A stretch of 64,000 nucleotides of DNA from Candidatus Woesearchaeota archaeon (GTDB lineage: Archaea; Nanobdellota; Nanobdellia; Woesearchaeales; UBA10216), in assembly GCA_016192945.1 (NCBI GenBank), contig JACPTE010000012.1, positions 9,557 through 73,556 of the forward strand, given 5' to 3'. This document shows, piece by piece, positions 1,199-57,951 of this stretch; within the stretch, counting starts at the first letter, position 1; each line of letters begins with the position of its first letter. The position numbers were made by a program, and so were the translations under genes. The notes below the pieces were generated by a model. That model searched no databases and was not told the origin of the DNA. It saw only the letters and a program-made list of their open reading frames with translations.

Positions 1199-3811
1199 AT
1201 GACGCTTACTGCCAAGCAGAAATATGAGCTGAAGAAGTTCCTTGCAGAGCTTGATAGCCACAAGGCCATGCATACTGAGCTGATTTCTGTATATATCCCG
1301 CAGGGTTATGACATGAACAAGATTATAAACCACCTTTCCCAGGAGCAGGGAACTGCTGCCAACATAAAGTCTGCGTCAACCAGGAAGAACGTCATTTCTG
1401 CACTGGAGAGGATGATTCAGCACCTCAGGCTTTTCAGGCAGACTCCTGAGAACGGCCTGGCAGTGTTCTCAGGGAATGTCGCCAAGCAGGGCCAGATTGA
1501 CCTGAGGGTCTGGAGCATTGACCCCCCGGTCCCATTGCAGACGAGGATTTACAGGTGCGACAAGAATTTCCAGCTGGATATACTCAGGGATATGCTGGAT
1601 GTCAAGGAGATGTACGGGCTGGTTGTAATGGACAGGAGGGAGGGCAATGTCGCAATTCTGAAGGGCAAGTCAATAATCCCTGTTGCAAAGTACACTTCAA
1701 ACGTACCGGGGAAGACGAAGGCGGGAGGGCAATGCTGTGTTCCTGACACATTGGTTGTCCTGGACTCAGGGGATATAATTCAAATGGCTGATTGTGAAAA
1801 GCCAATGGCTTTGAAGGCTGCAAATTTCTCCAGGAAATCAATTGAGGACTCAGCCGTTACAAATAAGTGGAATACGCAAAAAAATGCTGTTTTCCGCATA
1901 ACTACCAAATTTCCCCGCCTTGAGATTGAAACCTCAGCTGAACACGTGTTTTTTGTTTTGGTGGATGGTGAGATGGTTGAAAAAACCGCAGATCAGCTTA
2001 ATCCTGGAGATTGCCTTGTTATGCCTGAAAAAATGGAAGCTAAGGGCAAACTCCAGAAGCTTGAAACAGGAAGATTCTACAATTCATTTATCCTGTCTGA
2101 AAAAGGCAGGGCTTTTCTAAAGTCTCTTAGGCAGAAAATTAAGCAGAAAGAGCTGGCAGCCGAGATAGGCGTTACACAAACTGCAATTTCAGCCTATGAA
2201 CTGGGTAAAAGGAATATTGAACTACCGGCGCTGACCAGCCTATGCAAGCTTTTCAACCTGAGCATTGATGAATTCATTGAAAATTATGCTGAGCCATTCA
2301 GGCACCAGGGAACTGAAATTACTCTGCCAACTGTTCTTGACAGGGATTTGGCTCAATTCCTGGGCTATCTGACTGGCGATGGCACTATTGAAGAGGATAG
2401 GATAACCCTTTTTGAGCAAAGGGCACAGGTAGCCATAGCTTATAAAGAAAAATTTGATGAATACTTCAGGTTAAAAAGCAGCTACAAGTTCAGGCCCTCC
2501 AAGAACTATCATCAGCTCCGCTTTACCTGCCGCCCTCTCGTTAGGATGATAAGAAGCCTTTTCCCGGAAATCATGCTGTCTTCAGATTCAGCCATTCCCT
2601 CCAAGGTTCTGAGGTCAGATGACAACACCCTTGCCGGATATTTGAAGGGCTTGTTTGATGCTGACGGGTATATTTCCGCAAGAGGGCTGGGTTTGGGAAT
2701 GAACAACAAGCTGATAATCAGGCAGGTTCAGCTTGCATTGCTCAGGTTTGGCATTATAGCTTCATTCCATGAATATGATAACAGAAGGAACCCCTTTAGC
2801 AGCAGTATGCGCTATTCTGTCCAGGTTTCAGAGGCAGAATCATTGAGAATTTTCAGAGAATGCGTGGGCTTCACTTCTGTTGAAAAGCAGCTTATTCTTG
2901 AGGAAGTAATTTCAGGCCGAACTGAAAAAAGCAGCGTGCGCCAGATTTTAACTACCGGTTCAGAAGTCAGGGAAAAAATTGAAGGTGAGGGTTATGGCCT
3001 GAAAATGTTTCCAAAAGTAAGCAATTTCTTCAGAAATAAAAGGGCAATGAGCAAGCAGGCTTTCAGGTCGTCAATTTTGTCTTTAGTCCCTGAAGGGAAA
3101 TTAAGCAAAGATTTGCAAAAAATTTCTGACGCTGCTCTTTTGCCTGTGAAGATTCATAAGATAGAGATTATTGCAAAACCTGCCCAAATGGTGGATATTT
3201 CTGTGATAAACCAAACTTTCTTTGCAAACGGCATTTTGGTGCATAACTCTTCACAGAGATTTGAAAGATTGAGAGAGGGGGCTGCAAAGGAGTTCTACAC
3301 GAGGCTTGGGGAGCACATCAAGGACGAGTTTTTCGGCAAGCCTGAGCTTAAGGGGATTATTGTTGGAGGCCCTGGCCCCACGAAGTATGATTTTGTAGAG
3401 GGCAATTACATAGTCACTGAGCTGAAGAAGAGGATTATCGCAATAAAGGACCTGTCATATACAGGCGATTTCGGCCTTCAGGAGCTTGTTGACAAGAGCC
3501 AGGACGTGCTGGCTGAAGAGGAATTGGTCTCTGAAAAGAAAATCATGAACAGGTTCTTTGAGCTGCTTTCAACAAGGCAGGGGATGGTGAGCTACGGGCA
3601 GGCAGATGTCATGCGCCTTGTAAAGGGCGGTGTTGTGGATGTCGTCCTCCTTTCAGAGGCTCTGGAATCAGAGATTATCGGGGAGTTTGAGGAGGAGGCA
3701 AGGAAGTTCGGGACAAGGGTTGAGATAATCTCAACAGAGACAAGGGAGGGCGCGCAATTGAGGGATTTTGGCATGATTGCGGCAATCCTGAGATATGAGG
3801 TAAATTCCTAA
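1199..3811 (+). CDS. prf1: peptide chain release factor aRF1, interrupted by an intein
   Basis: NIKS motif (ANIKSASTRKNV) and GGQ motif; after the intein the sequence resumes SSQRFERLR..., matching canonical GGQSALRFARL; 365 extein aa plus 505 intein aa. Confidence 0.85.
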   Translation: MTLTAKQKYELKKFLAELDSHKAMHTELISVYIPQGYDMNKIINHLSQEQGTAANIKSASTRKNVISALERMIQHLRLFRQTPENGLAVFSGNVAKQGQIDLRVWSIDPPVPLQTRIYRCDKNFQLDILRDMLDVKEMYGLVVMDRREGNVAILKGKSIIPVAKYTSNVPGKTKAGGQCCVPDTLVVLDSGDIIQMADCEKPMALKAANFSRKSIEDSAVTNKWNTQKNAVFRITTKFPRLEIETSAEHVFFVLVDGEMVEKTADQLNPGDCLVMPEKMEAKGKLQKLETGRFYNSFILSEKGRAFLKSLRQKIKQKELAAEIGVTQTAISAYELGKRNIELPALTSLCKLFNLSIDEFIENYAEPFRHQGTEITLPTVLDRDLAQFLGYLTGDGTIEEDRITLFEQRAQVAIAYKEKFDEYFRLKSSYKFRPSKNYHQLRFTCRPLVRMIRSLFPEIMLSSDSAIPSKVLRSDDNTLAGYLKGLFDADGYISARGLGLGMNNKLIIRQVQLALLRFGIIASFHEYDNRRNPFSSSMRYSVQVSEAESLRIFRECVGFTSVEKQLILEEVISGRTEKSSVRQILTTGSEVREKIEGEGYGLKMFPKVSNFFRNKRAMSKQAFRSSILSLVPEGKLSKDLQKISDAALLPVKIHKIEIIAKPAQMVDISVINQTFFANGILVHNSSQRFERLREGAAKEFYTRLGEHIKDEFFGKPELKGIIVGGPGPTKYDFVEGNYIVTELKKRIIAIKDLSYTGDFGLQELVDKSQDVLAEEELVSEKKIMNRFFELLSTRQGMVSYGQADVMRLVKGGVVDVVLLSEALESEIIGEFEEEARKFGTRVEIISTETREGAQLRDFGMIAAILRYEVNS
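1733..3247 (+). mobile_element. intein (Hint domain + XRE-type HTH + LAGLIDADG homing endonuclease) inserted after the GGQ motif of aRF1
   Basis: Begins with Cys right after GGQ and ends ...GILVHN with Ser at +1; block B TxxH (ETSAEH); two LAGLIDADG motifs (LAQFLGYLTGDGTI, LAGYLKGLFDADGYI); Cro/C1-like HTH (ELAAEIGVTQTAISAYELGKRNI). Confidence 0.75.
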
Positions 3812-3812
3812 A

Positions 3813-4457
3813 ATGGGCGGGGCTGCTTCGGGCCTGCTGCTGGAGTTTCTTTCGTCTGAAGGCCTTAAGTTCTCATTAAGCGTGAGGTATTCCGGGAGAT
3901 TCAAGCCTTACAATGCCAATGTCAGAAAGTCAGGGAGCCATCTTGAGTTTAACCTGAGCAGGGAATGGAAGAGTGTCAGCGATGAGATTGTCCTCGGGCT
4001 GCTTCAGTCGCTTGCAGCCAGGATTCTGAGAGCGGGCTTCAAGACAGCCAACATGGACATTTACAACAACTTTGTGAGGAGCCTGCACTTAAGCTACCCC
4101 AAGGCAGCTACAGACCCGTGCCTGGCAGAGTCATTCAGGAGGGTGAACAGCAAGTATTTTGACGGCCTCCTGGAAATAACCAACTTTGCGTGGCACTCCT
4201 CATTGAGGAGGCTTGCCAGCTATGACTACCAGACCGACACTATCAGCGTCAGCGGTGTTTTCAGGGGAATGGACGAGCTCATAGATTACCTTATTTACCA
4301 TGAGCTGCTTCACAAGAAGCTGAAGTATCATAATGCCGGAGGCAGGAGCATACATCACAGCGCCATTTTCAGGCAGATGGAGAGAAAGTTTGAAAACCAG
4401 GAGCTGATTGAGAGGCAGATAAGCCGAATGATTAGAAACCAAAAATTTAAATATTAA
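3813..4457 (+). CDS. HExxH metal-dependent hydrolase, DUF45/YgjP(SprT)-like
   Basis: 214 aa; motif IYHELLHKKLKYHN...HHS similar to the YgjP family H-E-x-x-H-x(n)-H signature. Confidence 0.4.
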   Translation: MGGAASGLLLEFLSSEGLKFSLSVRYSGRFKPYNANVRKSGSHLEFNLSREWKSVSDEIVLGLLQSLAARILRAGFKTANMDIYNNFVRSLHLSYPKAATDPCLAESFRRVNSKYFDGLLEITNFAWHSSLRRLASYDYQTDTISVSGVFRGMDELIDYLIYHELLHKKLKYHNAGGRSIHHSAIFRQMERKFENQELIERQISRMIRNQKFKY

Positions 4458-49102: not shown

Positions 49103-49228
49103 TCCCCACGGCCGGATTTGAACCGGCAGCCTTTCGGGAACGGCTGGCTAAGCTTCATCAACAGCCAGATGGCTTTTTTCTGCATAGCATATCTACAGCC
49201 GAACGCTCTGCCGTTGAGCTACGCGGGG
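49103..49228 (-). tRNA. tRNA-Tyr (GUA) with a 54-nt canonical intron
   Basis: Exons 49228-49193 and 49138-49103: CCCCGCG acceptor, GCUC/GAGC D stem, UUCGG-CUGUAG[intron]C-CCGAA anticodon arm, GCCGG-UUCAAAU-CCGGC T arm. Confidence 0.65.
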
Positions 49229-55140: not shown

Positions 55141-55302
55141 TCAAAGGGCAAAGTTTGCAGGAAAAAGTCCCGGCATGGTTAGCCTGACTATTCCGACGAG
55201 CCGCCCATTGTTGTTATCCAGGTGGTTGTTGCCATCAGCCCTGCCATTATTGATATTATCATTGAGCCTAGCCACAAACCACAAGCGGCAGGTAGTAGCC
55301 AT
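55141..55302 (-). pseudogene. diverged duplicate of the 3' end of the gene at 55480-56304
   Basis: ~95-nt similarity between 55193-55290 and 55640-55740; encodes CRLWFVARLNDNINNGRADGNNHLDNNNGRLVG versus GRLWFVAGLGGSISSGGAVGVNHLGSDGGRFVG. Confidence 0.35.
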
Positions 55303-55479
55303 TCCACTTAAAATTTCCTCACTGCCGCTTCATTTCTGTTGCAGCTGAATTTTATAGCAACAATGTTGCCGTAGTGGAAAGGCGTGTAGTTCCAAGCTAC
55401 ACCTCAACACACATCCTCCTTGTAAAGGATGATGCGTAGCCGGGACAAATAACAAAAAAGAACACACTCATATAAAAAA

Positions 55480-56304
55480 TTACTTGTAAAGCGGCTTCAA
55501 AGCCGCACGGACATCAGTTCCAAAGCCAGCTCTGCCAACCTCAGCAACATATTTCCCAGCGGCAGATAAAACAACATTAACAGTCTGGTCAAGAGTTGGA
55601 CCTGCAACCCCACCTGTAACGGCGCGCGCCTCCGGCGCTACCCCGACGAAACGCCCACCGTCGCTACCCAGGTGGTTGACGCCAACAGCCCCGCCACTAC
55701 TGATACTACCACCGAGCCCAGCCACAAACCACAAGCGGCCAGCCGCTCCTTCAGAAGGAACAGTAGAATGATAAATTCCCATCAGATTGCCATCATAACC
55801 AAACCTTTCTTTGGCCTGAGCAAAAGTAGAATCAACAAACCCAGCAAGCAAGGACTTATCCCCTCCCGCCAAAGCAAGCCATCCTGGATTGATTTTAGCG
55901 TCAGAGCTTCCAAGAGGCTTGTTAAAATAACGCTCTACCTGCTGAGGACTGAATTCCTCACCTTCCAAACCCCTATAAAAGTCATTACTCAAAGGAACAG
56001 CACCATTGACCAGAACCTTTTCCGGTGTGAACTGCCTCAAGTATTCAGCATCAGGAACTATTTTCAGCCTGCCATCACTATGCCTAACAGCACCATCACC
56101 AGTATCAACATAATTGTCCCACCACGCAAGCTTAACCTCATCAGGCACTCCTGAAGCAAGAACTTCCAAACGCCTCTTCATGAGACCGGAAACAGATAAT
56201 GGGCTTCTGCCTTCTGCAACAAGCAAAGACATCTGCTCAACAGTACTTCCATAAAACTCCATATAATCAGCAACAGGAATGTTCAGTTGTAAGCTCATGT
56301 TCAT
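55480..56304 (-). CDS. hypothetical protein (Gly/Ala-rich C-terminus), compositionally atypical
   Basis: 274 aa; GC-richer than the flanks; no recognisable family. Confidence 0.35.
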   Translation of the reverse strand: MNMSLQLNIPVADYMEFYGSTVEQMSLLVAEGRSPLSVSGLMKRRLEVLASGVPDEVKLAWWDNYVDTGDGAVRHSDGRLKIVPDAEYLRQFTPEKVLVNGAVPLSNDFYRGLEGEEFSPQQVERYFNKPLGSSDAKINPGWLALAGGDKSLLAGFVDSTFAQAKERFGYDGNLMGIYHSTVPSEGAAGRLWFVAGLGGSISSGGAVGVNHLGSDGGRFVGVAPEARAVTGGVAGPTLDQTVNVVLSAAGKYVAEVGRAGFGTDVRAALKPLYK

Positions 56305-56410: not shown

Positions 56411-57040
56411 TCAAATAGCTTTTCTTCTGCTCCTGCTCTTAACGCTTGCCAAAACACAGCTTACCTCATCAAAACTGATTGAACTGTCATTGAGCCTTGC
56501 TTTTATCTGCTTAAGCTTGTCATCAGGGCTTCCAATTTTTTGCAGAATCCTGATTACTTTCTCCTTCTGCATAATCTTCCAGACAGAAAGCTGGTTATAC
56601 TGGATAAGCATTGCCAAGTGACCCCAAACCGTTGAATCCTTTATGCCTCTTCTCTTTGCTATTTCCGCAACGCTCAGACCTTTCTTAAGCAAATATGCTG
56701 TTTGCTGACTGCTGAGAGGAAACCGTGCCTCTTCAGATTTCTTTGCAAAGTTACTTTCCTTTTTGCTATTAACAGGTTGCTCCCGTTGCTCCTCCGAAAA
56801 ACAATGCGCCAAAAGTCTGGTCAGATGCATCCTATATTTATATGTGTCCGCATGCGAAACATAGGCAAGCCACCCTTCAAACCTCTCAATAAATTCCTCT
56901 TGCCCAATAAGCTTTAATTTGTATAGCTCCTTTAGCTCCTCAAACCTCTTCTCAAATTTCCTGAGGTTTTTCCTCCTCACGAGCTTATGATAAAAAAATA
57001 TCCTGAACCCCAAGAATCCAACGCCATTATTAAGCATCAA
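56411..57040 (-). pseudogene. N-terminally truncated reverse transcriptase (group II intron maturase-like thumb/X domain) with C-terminal LuxR/sigma70-r4-like HTH
   Basis: Begins at ...NNGVGFLGF (post-YxDD region); FIERFEGWLAYVSHADTYKYR resembles the GWxNYY X-domain; HTH LSSQQTAYLLKKGLSVAEIAKRRGIKDSTV; frame upstream is closed by stops within 8 codons. Confidence 0.45.
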
Positions 57041-57242: not shown

Positions 57243-57295
57243 TTAATTTCCCTATTCAGCCTTTCAACTTAATTTCCCTATTCAGCCTTTCAATA
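57243..57295. repeat. tandem 26-bp direct repeat (TTAATTTCCCTATTCAGCCTTTCAAC x2) spanning the transposase stop codon
   Basis: seen in sequence; a second tandem 13-bp repeat (TAGCACTTTTGA x2) lies at 58020-58045 near the other IS end. Confidence 0.5.
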
Positions 57296-57951
57296 AACCA
57301 GTTCCTTCCAATTCCACTGCTGACCACATGCCTTTTCCTTTGCTCTTTATAATTCCAGCCAATCTCTTTCTTAATCGCATAATTGTATTGCTCTAAGCCA
57401 TCCGTGATGATTCTTTTAGGCCTTACTCCAGATACTTGCATTGCTGTGCTCAGAAGGATGCGTGCATCCTTAATTCGTCTTGTCTTGCTAATGTGCCAAG
57501 AAAGAACTCCGATTTTGTCATAAACTATCCAAAGCCAATTACCCTTTCCTTTGATTTTCACATAAGTTTCGTCTGCGTGCCAAGTTGTTGGCACGGCGAT
57601 TTCTCGTCGGGAAATCGGCTTTTTTGTTGTTAATACCCATTGCCTTATAGCTTCTCGGCTGAATTTTACGTTAAATATTTGCAATAACAATTCAGCTATT
57701 CCTTCTAACGAAATTCCTTTTTTCAAATCCGTATAGATTTCAACAGCAAAACCGATAATGTGGCTGAATGTTCTTCTTCTTGGCAAGTCACTTGTCCAAA
57801 CAAAGCGAAACCCGCATTTTTTGCACTCATATTTTTGAAAGCCTTGCTCGTTTTTGCCTTTTCTGTAAAAGTCTTCTTCACCGCATTTTTTGCAAAAGGC
57901 GCAAAGCGAACCTTTTTTATAGCTAAAGCTACTCAAATCTGTTTGTATCAT
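57256..57951 (-). CDS. IS6-family DDE transposase with N-terminal zinc finger
   Basis: 231 aa; CAFCKKC...CKKCG zinc finger; WHADETYVKIKGKGNWLWIVYD...D..E typical of IS6/IS26-like transposases. Confidence 0.8.
   Translation of the reverse strand: MIQTDLSSFSYKKGSLCAFCKKCGEEDFYRKGKNEQGFQKYECKKCGFRFVWTSDLPRRRTFSHIIGFAVEIYTDLKKGISLEGIAELLLQIFNVKFSREAIRQWVLTTKKPISRREIAVPTTWHADETYVKIKGKGNWLWIVYDKIGVLSWHISKTRRIKDARILLSTAMQVSGVRPKRIITDGLEQYNYAIKKEIGWNYKEQRKRHVVSSGIGRNWFIERLNREIKLKG

Follow-up and report, generated by a model that had tools for sequence, protein, structure and literature searches.

A predicted mobile intein with an XRE-type helix-turn-helix domain interrupts the GGQ motif region of the archaeal release factor aRF1

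The gene that encodes aRF1, the class-I release factor of archaea, in a 64,000-nucleotide (nt) stretch of the genome of a Candidatus Woesearchaeota archaeon (GenBank assembly GCA_016192945.1, contig JACPTE010000012.1, positions 9,557 to 73,556 of the forward strand; hereafter the window) is interrupted by a coding insert of 505 amino acids (aa). To judge from its sequence, the insert very probably is an active, mobile class-1 intein located between Gln178 of the catalytic GGQ motif and the conserved serine that follows. Active homing is the preferred reading because the catalytic residues are kept, the ratio of nonsynonymous to synonymous substitution rates (dN/dS) is low, the synonymous divergence (dS) of the intein is low, codivergence with the host gene is weak, and nucleotide identity steps at the intein junctions.

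The open reading frame (ORF) at 1199..3811 on the forward strand translates into an aRF1 precursor of 870 aa plus a stop codon, and the precursor is 100% identical to a protein from a Ca. Woesearchaeota metagenome-assembled genome (MAG) recovered in a protein cluster search (P0001). An initial annotation had proposed that a 505-aa insert starts with Cys directly after GGQ and ends in His-Asn ahead of Ser. These limits were confirmed to the base at nt 1733-3247, corresponding to aa 179-683 with GGQ at aa 176-178. The insert begins with CCVPDT and terminates with ...FFANGILVHN followed by Ser, and the motifs quoted in that annotation (ETSAEH, LAQFLGYLTGDG, LAGYLKGLFDADG, and ELAAEIGVTQTAISAYELGKRNI) are all found in the translation. 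Pfam matches were judged against curated cut-offs which all domains of the precursor exceeded. The host portion matched eRF1_1 (56 bits), eRF1_2 (113 bits, interrupted by the insert), and eRF1_3 (69 bits), and the insert matched Intein_splicing (PF14890; 58.7 bits versus a cut-off of 35.8), HTH_3 (PF01381; 46.2 bits versus 23, E 4.6e-12), and LAGLIDADG_3 (PF14528; 56.4 bits versus 22.5). These profile matches, which greatly exceed what chance would give, and the modeled fold described below bear out the earlier assignment of a Hint domain, an XRE-type helix-turn-helix (HTH), and a two-motif LAGLIDADG endonuclease.

Removal of the insert in silico restored a collinear aRF1, as had been proposed. 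Against the aRF1 equivalog model TIGR03676, which has a cut-off of 234.7, the 365-aa spliced product scored 421 bits, and it aligned without gaps to the solved aRF1 proteins 4af1 and 3agk across ...PGK..GGQS.QRF.RL... and to intein-free orthologs across the GGQ region. In a hidden Markov model (HMM) of the intein-free orthologs, the two flanks covered model positions 1-180 and 179-365, so that the halves of the host protein are contiguous around GGQ. The precursor length of 870 aa agrees with the initial annotation, but the uninterrupted length of about 410 aa given there does not, as the norm for the lineage is 365 aa. The host protein retains the NIKS (aa 55-58), YRCDKNF (aa 118-124), and GGQ motifs. 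The C-extein begins with the predicted +1 nucleophile, the first Ser of GGQ/SSQRFERLR, in which the slash marks the point of insertion here and below. The G+C content of the intein (42.6%) is lower than that of the N-extein (50.6%), the C-extein (49.1%), and the whole window (46.3%), which fits a history and origin separate from those of the host gene. The features, all on the forward strand, are as follows.

1199..3811, forward: aRF1 precursor ORF, 870 aa plus stop (Pfam, translation)
1199..1732, forward: N-extein, aa 1-178 of aRF1, comprising domain 1 and the start of domain 2 (Pfam eRF1_1, eRF1_2)
1361-1372, 1550-1570, and 1724-1732, forward: N-extein motifs NIKS, YxCxxxF, and GGQ, respectively (translation)
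1733..3247, forward: intein, 505 aa, Cys1 to Asn505 (Pfam, AlphaFold2 model, homolog register)
1733..2068, forward: N-terminal part of the Hint domain, intein aa 1-112, block A Cys1 and block B S68-x-x-H71 (PF14890; beta strands in the AlphaFold2 model)
2099..2287, forward: XRE/Cro-C1 HTH accessory domain, intein aa 123-185, five helices, in the linker between the N-terminal Hint part (Hint-N) and the endonuclease (PF01381; predicted local distance difference test, pLDDT, > 90)
2318..2932, forward: two-motif LAGLIDADG endonuclease domain, intein aa 196-400 (PF14528; phmmer to PI-PfuI and VMA inteins; Foldseek to I-DmoI)
2933..3133, forward: post-endonuclease helical module, intein aa 401-467, with conserved FPKVSNFFRN..MSK (AlphaFold2 helices 409-465)
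3134..3247, forward: C-terminal segment of the Hint domain, intein aa 468-505, block F D488 and block G H504-N505 (strands 469-504)
3248..3811, forward: C-extein, aa 684-870 of aRF1 and the stop codon, comprising the remainder of domain 2 followed by domain 3 (Pfam eRF1_2 683-773, eRF1_3 777-868)

The intein was modeled with AlphaFold2 from 102 homologs, which yielded a mean pLDDT of 94.3 and a predicted template modeling (TM) score of 0.93. Hint beta strands occupy residues 1-121 and closing Hint strands occupy residues 469-504. A five-helix bundle at 123-185 (helices 123-133, 138-145, 149-157, 164-173, and 178-185) coincides with the Pfam HTH_3 match, and two alpha-beta-beta-alpha-beta-beta-alpha units at ~204-395 bear both LAGLIDADG helices. 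The first of these motifs is LAQFLGYLTGDG with acidic residue D216 (LAQFLGYLTGD216G) and the second is LAGYLKGLFDADG with acidic residue D311 (LAGYLKGLFDAD311G). When the model was compared with the PDB in Foldseek, the best match was the TliVMA intein (7qss; E 4e-24, TM 0.74), followed by PI-PfuI (1dq3), PI-TkoII (2cw7), PhoVMA (7qst), and then PI-SceI, with a probability of 1.00 to five solved inteins. The endonuclease part by itself resembles I-DmoI (TM about 0.70). A phmmer search of PDB sequences recovered the same intein families, of which PI-PfuI was the best match (E 7e-14). The post-endonuclease module occupies the position of the accessory domain in the VMA, PI-PfuI, and PI-TkoII inteins, and a local HMM built from this segment matched aRF1 inteins only. 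On sequence grounds the insert qualifies as a canonical class-1 intein that encloses a two-motif LAGLIDADG endonuclease, and for which both splicing and DNA cleavage are predicted. HMMs of the aRF1 intein modules matched only this ORF within the window, a search that does not extend to unrelated intein types.

Conservation was assessed in the best 120 homolog clusters among the 378 matches obtained with the precursor. Residues C1, S68, H71, D488, H504, N505, and the +1 Ser are invariant in all 120, and the insertion register GGQ/C...HN/S is identical throughout. Blocks A and B are present where they had been annotated initially, although block B (S68-A-E-H71) has the consensus S-x-x-H and not T-x-x-H. 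In the endonuclease, D216 is replaced by no residue other than Glu in 119 of the 120 homologs, position 311 is Asp or Glu in every one, and K257 is kept in 120/120. HTH residues Q138, Q149, S153, E156, and C171 are nearly invariant and the signature Q..(I/L)S..E.G is conserved. When the window was compared with a second intein-carrying locus, L002, dN/dS values were 0.09-0.20 across every intein module, including 0.09 for the HTH, 0.105 for the endonuclease, and 0.13 for the post-endonuclease module.

The GGQ loop of a release factor must reach the peptidyl-transferase center. The 870-aa precursor would be made with this loop interrupted and is expected to be inactive because a 58-kDa domain would sit in the loop that is bound for that center. 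Cys1 would undergo an N-S acyl shift, after which the +1 Ser would attack the thioester. Cyclization of Asn505, aided by His504 and Asp488, and an O-N shift would then deliver a 365-aa aRF1 with a native GGQ-SSQRF loop and a free 58-kDa intein. The latter would recognize and cleave an uninterrupted aRF1 allele (...GGx GGx CAR ahead of the junction, TCN or AGY after it), and repair of the double-strand break from an intein-carrying copy would insert the intein coding sequence precisely. The splicing pathway, the cleavage and recombinational copying, and the inactivity of the precursor are inferred from the known chemistry of inteins and LAGLIDADG enzymes, which the conserved residues match. The GGQ/S insertion site conforms to a general rule by which inteins are retained in those motifs of essential genes that are conserved most strongly, because there the DNA target does not vary and a deletion that is not precise is lethal.

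Unoccupied versions of the site were found in close relatives, which the initial annotation had suggested as a means to locate the homing site. The top 120 matches to the spliced exteins are all intein-free aRF1 proteins of 364-387 aa that derive from the same phyla and are up to 85% identical. The closest intein-free allele is P0121 on locus L001. The gene order prefoldin, Pcc1, L37ae, aRF1, an ORF of 214-224 aa, aIF5A, and M50 peptidase is common to the window, L001, and the intein-carrying locus L002, and therefore P0121 is the orthologous aRF1 with an unoccupied site. The L001 junction peptide NVPGKTKAGGQ/SSQRFERLREG is identical to the spliced junction of the window. The DNA of L001 at this junction reads ...GCCGGCGGACAG immediately before and AGCAGTCAAAGATTC... 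immediately after the point of insertion, and the empty site is ...AAGACGAAGGCCGGCGGACAG followed by AGCAGTCAAAGATTCGAGAGG.... When the site was reconstituted from 75 occupied loci, codon-wise conservation extended for 24 nt or more to either side of the junction.

The comparison of the window with L002 also bears on whether the element moves. DNA identity is 85% for the intein versus 77% for the exteins, and dS is 0.61 for the intein versus 1.5 for the N-extein and 3.1 for the C-extein. The identity of the inteins shows only a weak correlation with that of the exteins across the full set of 7140 pairs (Spearman 0.29), and certain pairs combine inteins that are 83-91% identical with hosts that are only 46-57% identical. 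The nearest extein neighbor is intein-free for 36 of 120 intein-bearing alleles. In 46 pairs of loci whose inteins are similar, identity at third codon positions falls in a sharp step exactly at both junctions, from 0.6-0.8 in the ends of the intein to about 0.5 in the first extein bin. The comparative data show that the intein has moved between lineages and has an evolutionary history separate from that of the host gene. The alternative of a relic that still splices but whose endonuclease is dead, and which is inherited vertically only and kept since imprecise loss from an essential loop is lethal, would account for the very uniform length of the insert (about 505 aa) and for its spread over Woesearchaeota, Nanoarchaeota, and Aenigmatarchaeota. 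This alternative is improbable: the nuclease catalytic residues are kept in at least 119 of 120 homologs and dN/dS in the endonuclease is 0.105, the intein dS lies far under the extein dS, inteins that are 83-91% identical reside in the divergent hosts noted above, and intein-plus and intein-free alleles interleave.

Certain observations nevertheless weigh against an active, homing intein on which termination depends. Homing often leaves a co-conversion gradient, and none was evident in the extein flanks of the 46 locus pairs at 10-codon resolution, which also is what a vertically inherited relic would display. The lack of a gradient can be tempered by the strong constraint on the flanks and by possibly short tracts, as co-conversion tracts can be very short. 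The TIGR models for intein N- and C-termini (TIGR01445 and TIGR01443) scored slightly under their cut-offs (18.8 versus 24.5 and 14.6 versus 15.6, respectively). Finally, a search with the extein HMM revealed no second aRF1 copy within the 64-kb window, a scope that does not cover the genome beyond. The dependence of termination on protein splicing, which was proposed in the initial annotation, is a sound inference with the check for a second aRF1 confined to the window.

Endonuclease-containing inteins generally bear structurally diverse accessory domains, which modulate DNA cleavage and are usually located after the endonuclease, ahead of the C-terminal part of Hint; those of TliVMA and PI-TkoII resemble HTH motifs (Beyer et al., PMC8966425). 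In the VMA inteins Hint-N is connected to the endonuclease by an unstructured loop, 28-32 residues long (PMC8966425). In the model of the aRF1 intein the position of this loop is taken by a full XRE/Cro-C1 domain, and an additional helical module is situated at the usual accessory position. An exhaustive search of 1.84 billion representatives with the aRF1 intein produced 2700 matches at E < 1e-3. Among the top 150 of these, local HMMs placed an HTH at the corresponding point of 19 full-length proteins other than aRF1, and the hosts of the Hint-HTH_3-LAGLIDADG_3 arrangement were identified with Pfam as FttA/aCPSF1, an MBL/RMMBL RNase, a DHHA1 protein, Topo VI-A, and dCMP deaminase. The notion that the HTH makes the aRF1 intein unique is ruled out by this shared layout. 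The initial annotation thus placed the HTH correctly between the splicing domain and the endonuclease, but overstated its unusual nature, since HTH-like accessory domains are known (PMC8966425) and the same domain order recurs in at least five other hosts. Conversely, 14 full-length aRF1-intein representatives lack the HTH, and the close relative P0067 has a clean deletion of ~70 aa that removes exactly this module. As read from these alignments, the HTH is thus a module that belongs to a broader class of inteins and that some of them can do without, as it is present in the inteins of other hosts and absent from certain aRF1 inteins.

By analogy with other inteins, the HTH and the post-endonuclease module most likely serve as accessory domains for DNA binding, through which recognition of the target is extended or adjusted. 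Two considerations count against this role for the HTH: the assignment of extra target DNA binding is drawn from that analogy, and the equivalent linker in the VMA inteins is positioned away from the DNA-binding face (PMC8966425). Natural pairs of HTH-plus and HTH-less inteins at one site permit comparison of the effects of an accessory domain on homing specificity, and these inteins are possible meganuclease scaffolds.

Cys171 (window 2243-2245) in helix 4 of the HTH is invariant in 119 of 119 HTH-bearing aRF1 inteins. The residue may be merely a buried part of the core and is the sole hint of a redox or metal role.

A domesticated or regulatory element also is considered unlikely. In this proposal, either conditional splicing in response to redox, temperature, or a similar cue would gate translation termination as a post-translational switch in these reduced DPANN cells, or the HTH-LAGLIDADG protein would, once excised, have a second function as a DNA-binding regulator of the XRE type, comparable to WhiA, which is a remote structural match that combines LAGLIDADG and HTH folds. 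The HTH is the most constrained module of the intein, the invariance of Cys171 has no obvious reason, a Cys1-Cys2 pair is present in 16 of 120 homologs, and certain other archaeal inteins are known to splice conditionally (RadA, cited in the reference list of PMC4760082). If the proposal were true, Cys171 might be a redox or metal sensor. However, presence/absence polymorphism among close relatives and horizontal movement form the pattern of a selfish element, the HTH is also carried by inteins whose host genes are unrelated and can be missing from aRF1 inteins, and the nuclease residues that are lost in WhiA are intact here. Nothing that was found favors a regulatory or domesticated role over an active, mobile intein. 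Least credible by far is that the insert is not an intein, since an assembly chimera is contradicted by an identical architecture in > 120 clusters that are independent and come from assemblies at NCBI, JGI, ENA, and Logan, among them the complete genome CP010426.1, and a permanent non-splicing domain is contradicted by the invariance of all splicing residues and by the structural knowledge of aRF1/eRF1, according to which 505 aa kept for good in the GGQ loop would not be compatible with the function of a release factor. Many independent assemblies and invariant catalytic residues likewise rule out a chimera or pseudogene.

Several known systems come close to the element. PI-PfuI (the Pfu RIR1-1 intein) and PI-TkoII, which provide the second and third fold matches, similarly are large archaeal LAGLIDADG inteins with extra DNA-binding subdomains, but their hosts are ribonucleotide reductase and DNA polymerase, respectively, and their accessory domains, named the 'stirrup' and domain IV, follow the endonuclease and are not of the Pfam HTH_3 type. 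The archaeal VMA-b inteins TliVMA and PhoVMA (7qss and 7qst; PMC8966425) share the combination of a Hint domain, a two-motif LAGLIDADG endonuclease, and an accessory domain, are inserted in the catalytic P-loop of an essential conserved protein, and give the best structural match together with a sequence match over the endonuclease. They differ in host and site from an intein at aRF1 GGQ/S, are about 17% identical to it in sequence, and have an unstructured loop where the aRF1 intein has the five-helix XRE HTH. The HTH inteins of other hosts (FttA/aCPSF1, P0320, P0348, and P0387; MBL/RMMBL RNase, P0305; DHHA1, P0312; Topo VI-A, P0336; dCMP deaminase, P0354) carry the XRE HTH between Hint-N and the endonuclease in the same domain order, but are about 24-30% identical, occupy different sites, and do not possess the aRF1-specific post-endonuclease segment. 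PI-SceI, the yeast VMA1 intein, likewise combines splicing with homing; further DNA contacts are made by its DNA recognition region, which lies outside the nuclease, and it is the model for accessory regions that extend the target. This region is an insertion within the Hint fold instead of an independent HTH, and the structural match is distant (TM about 0.4). The bacterial transcription factor WhiA (8dy9_I) is a free-standing host regulator with a C-terminal HTH, unlike the aRF1 intein in which the endonuclease is embedded in a Hint domain.

The aRF1 intein is common in DPANN archaea, to which all labeled sources belong and in which it is found in hundreds of assemblies. The best 120 clusters from the precursor search are 49-100% identical, nearly all about 870 aa long with the same Pfam set and inserts grouped tightly at 500-510 aa, and those with a named source are from MAGs of Woesearchaeota or Nanoarchaeota. 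Among the species representatives of GTDB, a scan revealed at least 178 genomes with a relative of the intein, of which most of the top 80 are labeled Woesearchaeota, Nanoarchaeota, or Aenigmatarchaeota. More divergent representatives derive from Aenigmatarchaeota and Nanohaloarchaea, and the carriers include the complete genome of archaeon GW2011_AR20 (CP010426.1). The rarity implied by the initial annotation therefore was overstated, and the element is already annotated automatically by JGI as 'peptide subunit release factor 1 (eRF1)/intein/homing endonuclease'. NCBI names the proteins 'helix-turn-helix domain-containing protein' or 'LAGLIDADG family homing endonuclease', which conceals their identity such that aRF1 is seemingly absent from many DPANN MAGs. 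Moreover, the 505-aa insert can disturb marker-gene alignments and completeness estimates. Many contigs with a Woesearchaeota-type aRF1 intein (L007, L008, L012, L013, L018, and others) were deposited as 'uncultured Methanosarcinales archaeon', and one intein-bearing contig as 'Candidatus Aminicenantes bacterium'. These contigs probably are mislabeled or misbinned.

Two longer aRF1 precursors outside the window that were recovered in the search of representatives, P0279 (1187 aa) and P0300 (1452 aa), contain two inteins each, one of which is at GGQ/S. The second is inside the YxCxxxF motif (...TYLY[MR]/C...VHN/CDDH[YF]H...), the Cys of which is the +1 nucleophile. Both functional centers of aRF1, GGQ and the stop-codon-recognition motif, can be intein targets, because inteins occupy both in these precursors.

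The initial annotation stated that aRF1 is not a classic intein host, which agrees with the literature that was searched, where no paper links an intein to aRF1/eRF1. No description of such an intein was found in that literature, with an entry in the supplementary tables of the 2015 census (Novikova et al.) being possible. Release factors are not mentioned in the main text of this census (PMC4760082), which reports that core translation components carry few inteins. Nor was a description of an XRE-HTH intein class found in the literature searched. Overall the mechanism is that of textbooks, the host site is one for which no description was found, and the XRE HTH in the linker is a modest architectural twist. 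The findings add a class-I release factor and the universally conserved GGQ hydrolysis loop to the intein host sites, and expose a sizeable, apparently undescribed class of inteins with an XRE HTH in the Hint-to-endonuclease linker. In carriers, maturation of the only recognized termination factor should need protein splicing, which makes the aRF1 intein a simple system in which to ask whether the rate of splicing limits or regulates an essential process.

Additional features of the window were noted. An ORF of 214 aa at 3813-4457 on the forward strand begins 1 nt past the aRF1 stop codon, and both L001 (217 aa) and L002 (224 aa) have a conserved counterpart in the same place. The product contains an HExxH motif (YHELLH) and has no Pfam match at E < 1e-3. 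On the reverse strand, a match to the Rfam RT-16 RNA at 55290-55444 (76 bits versus a gathering score of 50) lies directly 3' of a 274-aa ORF at 55480-56304 (reverse strand) with no Pfam match. Nearby, also on the reverse strand, are an HTH_40 protein at 56411-57040 and a DDE transposase at 57256-57951, and no reverse transcriptase domain was recognized near the RNA match. An Rfam tRNA match at 49103-49228 on the reverse strand spans 126 nt for a 71-position model with a score of 55.9 bits and was not called by ARAGORN; it probably contains an archaeal intron.

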